Positions 5,451 through 7,985 of a stretch of 32,000 nucleotides of DNA are shown in pieces (position 1 is the first letter of the stretch; the number at the start of each line of letters is the position of its first letter). The notes below the pieces were generated by a model that was not told the DNA's origin, ran no database searches, and saw only the letters and a list, made by a program, of their open reading frames with translations. Both the position numbers and the translations under genes were made by a program. The stretch is taken from positions 60,001 to 92,000 of the forward strand of contig DAOVER010000005.1 in the NCBI GenBank assembly GCA_030668875.1. The letters run 5' to 3'. The stretch is from Candidatus Heimdallarchaeota archaeon (lineage in GTDB: Archaea; Asgardarchaeota; Heimdallarchaeia; Heimdallarchaeales; Heimdallarchaeaceae).

Positions 5451-7985
5451 CTATTTTTTTGGAGAGCTTGGATAAGTTCCGATTGGCATTAGCACTCGCT
5501 TTACACTAGAGACTATACCGTGTTCCTTTTCAGGAAGAGTTATTGCATCAATCTGTGCTTCACCTAATGCAACCAATTCATTCTTCAAGGTATAAATCGC
5601 TACCATGTCGCCTGCTTTGAATTCTTCTGAATACCTTGAAACACCTGGTAAAGCTAATGGGGCACCATGACAGATAGTATTAACCGCACTGTCTTTGATA
5701 ATAACTTGTGGTATATGTCTCACCCCATATTCCATAGGTAGAATAATGTTTCGTAAGGGATTTTCATCTTTTTCTTCTCTATACCATGCAAAAGCATCAT
5801 ATAAATCATGGAGAGTGGATAAGAAATCATTTTCCGAAAATGGTCCAGAGCGCGTTCGTCTAAGTTCCTTCATATGAGCGCCACACGATAAACTTTGTCC
5901 AATATCATGGCAATTAGAAGACACAAAACCTGTTTCAATGAGAAAATTATGAGTTTTTGGTACAGTCATATCATAAACATAACCAGTACTTTGGACATTC
6001 TCAATTGATTCTATTTTTTCAATAATGAAATCATCCAGTTCTGGTAACATTATGTGTGTAGAAGCAGTTTTGTAGAACCCTCGCGTCATAGGGATATTTT
6101 CTTTTAAAATTCTATCCAAATTTCCACCCATTATTTTTTTCAATTCTGTTTTATGGGAAATTAAATAATTCGCAAAATGAAAACCAATATGATATTTATC
6201 TCCATATTCATGATCAGAATTCAGTTCTTCGAACTCAGTGAATTTTCTGATTTTCTCTGGATGGTTAGAACCAATTTCATTGATGAATTTCAACTCTGCA
6301 CCTATCGTACCAACAGACACTATATACATTGTAGTGATATAATTCTTAAAATTAACTTCTCTTGAAAAAATAGTATTTTCAATTTCTAATTTAAGTAGTA
6401 ATTTATGAAGTATTATTGCTTCACTTCTGTTAACCGTGTATAAAGAAATACGAGATTTAACACTATGAGAATATGTTTTTATTTGTACAGACCCATCCCC
6501 ATCAAAATAACCTCGTAAGTAGGAACAAATCAATTTAGGTTCAAGTTGGAGCAAAGGAGAAAAATCAGCATTCTTTTTTGGGCTTCTTATTCCTAAAGAT
6601 GCTGCTATAGTAGCAAGAAGAGAGTTTGTAAGAGATACACCCCAAACACCATTTTTATCTTGATTAACCGAATAATGTGAATTTGGGAATAATTCTTTGT
6701 AAATTTCAACATACTTATCAATTAGTTCCTTATTTGTATTATTAAAAATTAATCTTGTATAACGTACTGTATTTTTCTCTTTTGAATTATTTCCATCTGA
6801 AGCAATTAATCCTAAAAGATAAAATAAAGATTCATTTAGCTCTCTTAGCTTAATGATTTGACCTTTTACTTGCTTAAATCTATAAATTTGTTCTTTAACA
6901 TCTTCATATATTCCAGCTAGTTTAAGATGTTTTATTTTTATCGAGTAAGAAGAGTTTGAAACAAATGGCTGCCTACTAACATCTAGTTTTCTGCTCATTT
7001 CTCTAATACTACCATATTTTTTAATGAAGGCGTTTTTACATTTTTCCTTTATTTCATCTTGTTCTATAAGGTACTCATCATCCAAAAGATCTGACACAAT
7101 TAGTTTTTTACTAGTTAAGTTTGGTTTAAAACTTTTAACTAAAAAATCACCAACTCTTAATTTTCTAGCTTCAGTCATATTATAACCAACATCTGTAGAT
7201 TTCAACATTTCATGGTCTGGTGTAATAATTATTGAAATACCAGTTTTCATTTTTAGTTTAATTAAAACTGGAGGGGAAGGGATGGTTTGAACTGCAGATG
7301 GATCTTTTTGATCTATTTTTCCATCAACAAAAGAAAAGATTGTTTTTGGACTTTCAACGAAATCTTTAGCTGAAACTGATCCTTCAGCTGTAAGAATCTG
7401 AGTATTAGGATGTAAACAATATTTTCTAACATAAAATCCTGCTTGAGAGCTTATCCTAAAAAGAACTTCTCTTTCCCTTATATCAAGAATCTCTGAATTA
7501 TAGATGGTTCGAATTCTTAATACTCTTTTTACACTTGCCCTTAATGGGGGTCTTTGATACAAATCACCAACATAATCACCAACAATAGATCTTATTCTTT
7601 CTTCATCAATATCGGCGTGTAATCGCATATTTCCAACGTATTCCTTTCCAGCGAGGAGAAGTGTATCCAATATTCGAGTTGCTTTTCCTAAAGCCGTAGG
7701 AAGAACACCGGTTACCTGTGGGTCCAAGGTTCCAGAATGACCCGCTTTTGGAATGCCAAGAATCTTTTTTACATAACTAACTACTTCATGGCTAGTTGGA
7801 TTAGGAGGTTTGTCCAAGTTGATGATACCATAATTCAATAATTCTGCAATTGTTCGATTTGAAGGCTTTTTTCCCCATTTAAAATCAGTTGTATCTCTGG
7901 AAAGTATCTTTAAGGGGTACTTATTGTCATCAAATGATAACTTTGGGGTGGAAAAAACTAATGTCATGATATCATCACGGAGCAC
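5451..7985 (-). CDS. cbf5: Cbf5/TruB pseudouridine synthase (H/ACA RNP catalytic subunit) interrupted by an intein
   Basis: '[17 protein letters not shown]', '[14 protein letters not shown]' (catalytic Asp), '[12 protein letters not shown]', 'LRRTRSGPF' and a C-terminal PUA domain. Exteins total about 342 aa (336 from the ATG at 7967). Confidence 0.97.
   Translation of the reverse strand: [844 protein letters not shown]
5913..7418 (-). mobile_element. Intein with LAGLIDADG homing endonuclease (502 aa) in Cbf5
   Basis: Begins at Cys (TGT 7416-7418, '[13 protein letters not shown]'). Block B 'ITPDHEM', LAGLIDADG motifs 'LLGLIASDG' and '[11 protein letters not shown]', block F '[12 protein letters not shown]', end 'GFVSSN' then +1 Cys. 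Removal restores '[12 protein letters not shown]'. Confidence 0.95.

Follow-up and report, generated by a model that had tools for sequence, protein, structure and literature searches.

A class-1 LAGLIDADG intein, very probably a selfish homing element, in motif III of the pseudouridine synthase Cbf5 of a Heimdall-group archaeon

Background

Archaeal inteins are concentrated in proteins of replication, repair and nucleotide metabolism, with few in components of translation or transcription, and Cbf5 is not among the hosts in the main table of the survey that reports this distribution (Novikova et al. 2016, PMC4760082). Here we describe a 502-residue intein in Cbf5, the pseudouridine synthase of the H/ACA ribonucleoprotein (RNP), encoded on the minus strand at 5913-7418 of a 32,000-nucleotide stretch of Candidatus Heimdallarchaeota DNA (contig DAOVER010000005.1, positions 60,001 to 92,000). 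This whole stretch is called the window below, and all positions refer to it. The source organism is a Heimdall-group Asgard archaeon whose family includes Ca. Heimdallarchaeum endolithica. The intein had been proposed in a sequence-only reading of the window, whose general statement that most catalogued inteins sit in replication, repair and nucleotide-metabolism proteins agrees, for archaea, with the main findings of the survey.

The closest described systems in structure are the solved inteins TliVMA and PhoVMA (7qss, 7qst), PI-PkoII/PI-TkoII (2cw7), PI-PfuI (1dq3) and PI-SceI (1vde). The Cbf5 intein has the architecture of the solved archaeal-type inteins, i.e. a HINT domain split around a two-motif LAGLIDADG endonuclease with extra DNA-binding parts, and it shares with the solved intein endonucleases Cys1, the block B TxxH, the terminal Asn and a Cys at the +1 position. 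It differs from them in sequence (15-22% identity), in having Ser rather than His before the Asn, and in carrying a helix-turn-helix (HTH)-like helical module before the endonuclease core and another helical module after it. The hosts differ as well, being an ATPase, a DNA polymerase or a ribonucleotide reductase in the solved relatives.

The cbf5 gene itself is known to be interrupted in other archaea by an element of another kind. According to the account of crenarchaeal cbf5 in Yokobori et al. (2009, PMC2738675), a bulge-helix-bulge pre-mRNA intron of at least 16 bases interrupts the catalytic-Asp codon of motif II and is removed by the tRNA splicing endonuclease. Both that intron and the Cbf5 intein are intervening elements in a catalytic motif, gained and lost in evolution, but the crenarchaeal element is an RNA intron at motif II whereas the intein is a 1506-nucleotide element that acts at the protein level and lies after motif III (compare PMC2738675). 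In the window the Asp codon region (GTLDP) is uninterrupted.

Results

The insert in cbf5 is very probably a class-1 intein with a LAGLIDADG homing endonuclease, a selfish homing element seated in motif III for which both splicing and DNA cleavage are predicted. Translation of the minus strand over 5913-7418 gives exactly 502 residues, from CLHPNTQ... to ...GFVSSN, in full agreement with the coordinates and length first proposed. The intein is bordered on the N side by an 11-residue stretch ending in ...GFYVRKY and on the C side by CHDIGQSL..., and its G+C content is 29.2%, against 36.5% and 39.2% in the two exteins. Pfam Intein_splicing (PF14890) matches it with E 1e-16 and LAGLIDADG_3 matches it in two stretches with E 5e-14, while the NCBIfam models intein_Nterm (TIGR01445) and intein_Cterm (TIGR01443) both exceed their cut-offs.

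Judged by its family matches, the host protein is an unambiguous Cbf5. Over the flanks the NCBIfam Cbf5 equivalogs TIGR00425 and NF003280 reach about 399 bits, where about 240 is required, and the match consists of two pieces adjoining at profile positions 170-174; for TIGR00425 the score is 398 bits against an equivalog-level cut-off of 238. The Pfam domains DKCLD, TruB_N, TruB_C_2 and PUA are found in the flanks, and so are both catalytic motifs of Cbf5, GTLDP with its Asp and GxYxR. In the list of open reading frames (ORFs) of the window the minus-strand frame 5451-7985 has 844 codons. Translation probably begins at the ATG at 7967, as in an identical database copy (P0003, beginning MTLVF), and the precursor gene is then 5451..7967 with its stop codon and encodes 838 residues; the upstream GTG at 7985 would give 844. 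The N-extein (7419..7967, 183 residues) holds the DKCLD domain, the catalytic-Asp motif GTLDP and motif III ending in ...QAGFYVRKY, and the C-extein (5451..5912, 153 residues and the stop) begins with the +1 Cys of CHDIG and holds the TruB_C_2 and PUA domains.

The insertion site lies in the catalytic core of the enzyme. For the structural placement we used an intein-free sister protein (P0123), which is identical to the predicted spliced product over the junction stretch compared and aligns end to end with the Pyrococcus Cbf5 entries 2aus, 2hvy and 3lwo at E values near 1e-103 (1e-104 for P. abyssi 2aus). Through it the Tyr and Arg of GFYVR align to chain positions 179 and 181 of Pyrococcus Cbf5, and the intein falls between positions 183 and 184, two residues past the Arg of the GxYxR stretch, which we take to be the motif III that lines the active site of TruB/Cbf5 enzymes. 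The domain matches, the fold given below and this position past Tyr-x-Arg bear out the original proposal of a full homing-endonuclease intein in motif III.

The splicing residues are found at both ends of the intein. The N-terminal splicing lobe of the HINT domain covers residues 1-105 (7104..7418, minus strand, as for all parts of the intein), as indicated by TIGR01445 (34 bits against a cut-off of 24.5) and by the beta strands of a structure model. Cys1, encoded by the TGC at 7416-7418, is invariant in an alignment of 26 inteins from Cbf5 proteins, and so are T66 and H69 of block B (TPDH, residues 66-69, 7212-7223). The C-terminal splicing lobe, residues 462-502 (5913..6035), is matched by TIGR01443 and contains a 12-residue block F (5943-5978) and a block G that ends in Ser-Asn, with D483, H490 of block F, S501 and N502 again invariant in the 26 sequences. 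Across the C-terminal junction, given by a stretch of nine residues, the terminal Asn is followed by Cys at +1, and this Cys is found in every intein-bearing allele examined.

Between the two lobes lie the endonuclease and two helical regions. The LAGLIDADG core, residues 191-400 (6219..6848), is covered by the two LAGLIDADG_3 matches, and both of its motifs keep the acidic residue: LLGLIASDG at 6792-6818 (D208, conserved in at least 90% of the 26 inteins) and LRGYFDGDG at 6492-6518 (D308, conserved in 23 of the 26). It is preceded by a helical HTH-like region at residues 106-190 (6849..7103), delimited by conservation in the family and by model helices 121-135 and 138-145, in which there is hardly any variation at S137, R139, R149 and F152. 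The two LAGLIDADG motifs and the 17-residue HTH-like peptide quoted in the sequence-only reading are all located in the intein. Pfam gave sub-threshold matches for the HTH-like region to DUF2089-HTH, NUMOD1 and HTH_50; the module is probably an accessory DNA-binding part, as in other large inteins. The second helical region, residues 401-461 (6036..6218, model helices 413-453), has no Pfam match.

The predicted structure places the intein among the archaeal-type inteins with high confidence. We built an AlphaFold2 model on the alignment of the 26 Cbf5 inteins, with a mean predicted local distance difference test score of 92.2 and a predicted template modelling score of 0.90. When the intein sequence was compared with those in the PDB, the matches were weak and confined to the C-terminal splicing block, and the structural relatives came from a fold search, the best being TliVMA (Z 27.1, 387 residues aligned), PhoVMA (Z 24.9), PI-PkoII (Z 24.8), PI-PfuI (Z 20.4) and PI-SceI (Z 19.3). 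For the splicing lobes, superposition on the Mtu RecA and Ssp DnaB mini-inteins over 132-133 residues gives a root-mean-square deviation (RMSD) of 1.3-1.4 A and Z 18, i.e. a HINT fold. Residues 193-395 of the model superpose on I-DmoI with Z 19 and RMSD 2.9 A over 177 residues and on I-Tsp061I with Z 21, and in the model the core has the alpha-beta-beta-alpha-beta-beta-alpha pseudo-dimer fold of two-motif LAGLIDADG enzymes.

Empty alleles in close relatives are colinear with the window gene to the base. The source copy is the sole intein-bearing one among the 24 species genomes of its genus, and cbf5 is uninterrupted by an intein in all the 23 others (one of these genes is split by a contig end, at a position other than the intein site). 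In three sisters with about 90% nucleotide identity (L018, L023 and L028) a 36-residue stretch reads as the window exteins joined exactly, and the 19-residue junction within these alleles equals the predicted spliced product, which is the comparison that the sequence-only reading had suggested. Metagenomic contigs give the same picture. Run X4, of the same study, yielded one contig with the intein, continuous over both junctions at a depth of 26.9, and a second, about 91% identical, at a depth of 16.6, that joins exactly across the 1506 bases; run X5, from a cold seep and a different study, gave two intein-free sequences, likewise at about 91% identity, that join exactly across the same 1506 nucleotides. 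The placement of these joints is ambiguous by three bases, the first codon of the intein and the +1 codon both being TGC.

The residue at +1 varies among the intein-free congeners. In 22 of them (L009-L030; codon aligned to 5910-5912) it is Cys in 13, Ala in four, Val in three, Thr in one and Ile in one. The intein-bearing allele P0005 has Cys at this position, and its intein-free sisters L015, L024 and L025 have Ala or Val. Alleles with a non-nucleophilic +1 residue could not support splicing, and they may act as immune target sites.

The Cbf5 intein is widespread in the databases. A search with the whole precursor returned 271 proteins of similar length; we inspected 120 of these, and nearly all are Cbf5 proteins that an intein interrupts at the same GxYxRKx|C site. 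The same allele is thus present in more than 120 Cbf5 clusters and probably in more than 270. The named carriers among those inspected include Nanoarchaeota, Woesearchaeota, Hodarchaeales, Promethearchaeota, Thermoproteota, Bathyarchaeia and Odinarchaeia, and a scan at the DNA level found the same junctions in nine species-representative genomes. Within the Asgard archaea the intein is rare, being found in the Cbf5 of five of 399 species genomes. The database inteins, including that of Ca. Heimdallarchaeum endolithica (CP084167.1), occupy the site GxYxRKx | C.D[ILMV]G as in the window, measure about 491-513 residues, have the same CLHP... and ...SSN ends, and are 45-75% identical to the source intein. 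A second lineage at the same site in other archaea has the ends CV...V[VI]SN, lengths of 456-545 residues and 33-38% identity; the source intein, at about 500 residues, is of the CLHP...SSN type.

No mention of Cbf5, TruB, dyskerin or a pseudouridine synthase as a host of inteins came up in full-text searches of the literature, and the co-occurrences of the terms fell in reference lists or unrelated passages alone. The names given by NCBI to the proteins with this intein vary between Cbf5, PUA domain-containing protein and LAGLIDADG family homing endonuclease. The suggestion that Cbf5 is not a standard intein host stands for the survey table and for the papers searched, but not for the databases, where more than 120 clusters carry the same allele. 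The novelty of the element is largely lost on the 271 matches across several archaeal phyla: the Cbf5 intein is widespread in databases and apparently undescribed in print, and what is new about it lies in the absence of a published description alone.

Comparison of inteins with exteins argues for transfer of the element between archaeal phyla. Against copies in DPANN archaea the intein is 52-56% identical while their exteins are 41-57% identical; within the genus the intein diverges faster than the extein (75% against 86-90% identity). The intein is thus at least as similar across phyla as the exteins although it evolves faster within the genus, and we therefore argue that it was transferred horizontally. 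In the extein tree of the genus five intein-bearing alleles (the source and P0004-P0007) are scattered among 22 intein-free species, and the exteins of one of them (P0006) are 95-96% identical in nucleotides to the intein-free L011 and L013.

Decay of the endonuclease is seen in some members of the family. D308 is missing from three of the 26 Cbf5 inteins. In P0009, from the Heimdall family, both LAGLIDADG motifs are degenerate (GFISPHKDN and GYFDAIGQ, alignment columns ~225-235 and 335-345); this intein keeps its splicing residues, sits on a very long branch of the intein tree and looks like a decaying endonuclease. By their motifs, P0009 and the inteins without D308 would be the expected decay stage of a homing cycle.

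Several other observations on inteins were made. A full-length relative with 26% identity over residues 1-502 lies at 2501-4066 of an Armatimonadetes metagenome-assembled genome contig (L045, JACPRY010000103.1), and three loci with a Cbf5 intein (L039, L044, L049) are labelled 'uncultured Methanosarcinales', labels that may be unreliable. The source genome (G000) is rich in inteins, with at least 10 other long ORFs that match intein splicing domains, LAGLIDADG domains or both. These are found on its contigs at C13:12923-16165, C79:4789-8274, C15:57728-60400, C91:83618-85120, C19:52010-53110, C40:54559-56184, C95:58005-59117, C9:54038-55468, C38:64354-65040 and C47:24506-25033. Three ORFs of this genome, of 1716, 2386 and 1726 residues, seem to contain two or three inteins apiece.

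The neighbourhood of cbf5 is conserved in two relatives. The gene lies downstream of L34e, cytidylate kinase (cmk) and a small ORF at the L14e position, an order repeated in the contigs of two relatives. The small ORF (8018-8299, minus strand, 93 residues), between cmk and cbf5 at the usual archaeal position of L14e, has no Pfam match at E <= 0.001, and matchless ORFs of the same size are likewise placed in the two relatives L115 and L116. Convergent with cbf5, the ORF 4809-5429 (plus strand, 206 residues) shows a Walker-A-like motif, GLQISGKS, and matches no Pfam family; in L115 and L116 cbf5 is followed by syntenic ORFs of 207 and 204 residues, which makes it a conserved gene of no recognised family.

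Discussion

As a class-1 LAGLIDADG intein the element is of the textbook kind, and its host is what is unusual. From the residues present we would expect it to work as follows. After translation of the 838-residue precursor Cys1 would start an N-S acyl shift, Cys+1 would perform the transesterification and Asn502 would cyclise, releasing the intein. The last step is probably aided by the block-F His, since the residue before the Asn is Ser and not His. The product would be a normal Cbf5 of 336 residues acting with Nop10, Gar1 and guide RNAs. The free intein, or its endonuclease domain, would cleave cbf5 alleles that lack the intein, at the same site, and be copied into them by repair. Gain and fixation would be followed by decay and precise loss, in a selfish homing cycle that probably runs within the Heimdall-group genus and has probably also crossed phyla.

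The activity of Cbf5 plausibly depends on splicing in this organism. The source genome (92% complete) has one cbf5, with no second copy found in it, and keeps both the Nop10 and Gar1 genes, and an active Cbf5 is for these reasons expected to be needed; it would have to come through splicing, because the precursor has 502 residues wedged in an active-site motif. The earlier suggestion that pseudouridylation of rRNA and tRNA depends on splicing is sound in this sense, given the sole gene and the active-site insertion, but is probably too broad for tRNA. Pus10 is an archaeal tRNA pseudouridine 54/55 synthase, and its gene is found in the source genome; tRNA pseudouridine 55 is therefore probably independent of cbf5.

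Several points weigh against an active selfish element. Splicing and DNA cleavage themselves are deduced from the residues that the intein keeps, and in block G the usual penultimate His is replaced family-wide by Ser501, although H490 of block F is invariant. This His is common but not obligatory, and Ser in its place is a minority variation in other inteins. Inside the Heimdall family the trees of intein and exteins largely agree. The synonymous divergence (dS) from the nearest relative, P0004, is similar for the intein (~1.5) and the exteins (~1.1-1.2). Sliding windows against intein-free sisters and the nearest intein-bearing allele show no clear co-conversion tract, the dip around the junction being marginal and unconvincing. 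The pattern in the genus could thus reflect old vertical inheritance with repeated precise loss instead of recent homing, two histories that synonymous sites cannot separate within the genus because they are saturated. For the same reason the ratios of nonsynonymous to synonymous divergence (dN/dS) against P0004, ~0.11 over the whole intein and ~0.10 in its endonuclease core, are rough.

The agreement of the trees, the similar dS and the lack of a clear co-conversion tract speak for an intein that still splices and whose endonuclease no longer cuts, being inherited vertically and now and then removed by precise deletion or through conversion from intein-free kin. The decay seen in P0009 and in the three inteins without the second Asp shows that the family can reach this state. 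But the source copy keeps both catalytic aspartates and an intact core, and the low dN/dS of that core is hard to explain without selected endonuclease activity and indicates an endonuclease that is still under selection. In addition, intein-bearing and intein-free alleles differ by 4-5% in extein DNA, and the similarity of the intein across phyla exceeds that of the exteins. We consider an immobile intein possible but rather unlikely for the source copy.

A regulatory role for the intein seems very unlikely. Splicing of Cbf5 would here be held until the reduction of a Cys1-Cys+1 disulfide or a shift in temperature or redox state, and rRNA pseudouridylation would be switched after translation. 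The unspliced precursor should be inactive, with the intein lodged in the active site of the sole Cbf5, and both nucleophiles are cysteines, a generic fact. Redox-controlled splicing is known for some other archaeal inteins with this Cys/Cys arrangement. However, the intein is lacking from the Cbf5 of all 23 congeners and of 394 of the 399 Asgard species genomes, its intact and selected endonuclease and patchy distribution across phyla fit a selfish element, and no extra sensor domain was found, the accessory parts resembling DNA-binding helices alone. The conditional gating suggested earlier thus finds no sign in the sequence, and the distribution resembles that of a selfish homing element. 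It is equally improbable that the intein is kept in some lineages for condition-dependent splicing, e.g. through a reversible disulfide of this kind; if it were, guide-RNA-directed rRNA pseudouridylation would be switched post-translationally in the archaea that carry the Cbf5 intein.

That the insert does not splice, or is a chimeric join, with cbf5 effectively inactivated, is hardly credible: the spliced product is predicted rather than seen and the loss of cbf5 might be survivable, its deletion being tolerated in Haloferax volcanii, but the frame is open over 838 codons in AT-rich DNA (the chance for the 502 codons of the intein alone is ~4e-19 at 29% G+C), the splicing residues are all conserved, purifying selection on the exteins is strong (dN/dS 0.04-0.11), both junctions are spanned with zero mismatches by single contigs in several runs (X1 and X2 may be the source sample), and the same architecture recurs in more than 100 independent assemblies. 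A pseudogene or misassembly was rejected on these grounds.

Conclusions

The reading of the element as a selfish homing intein leaves the understanding of how inteins or Cbf5 work unchanged. It adds an RNA-modification enzyme to the hosts of inteins and is once more a case of an intein placed at an active-site motif. A new meganuclease or splicing part could be made from the intein and its target. The genus is a convenient natural system for the homing cycle, with intein-bearing and empty alleles that are a few percent apart in extein DNA and co-occur in the same sediments, and with intact and decayed endonucleases at the same site.

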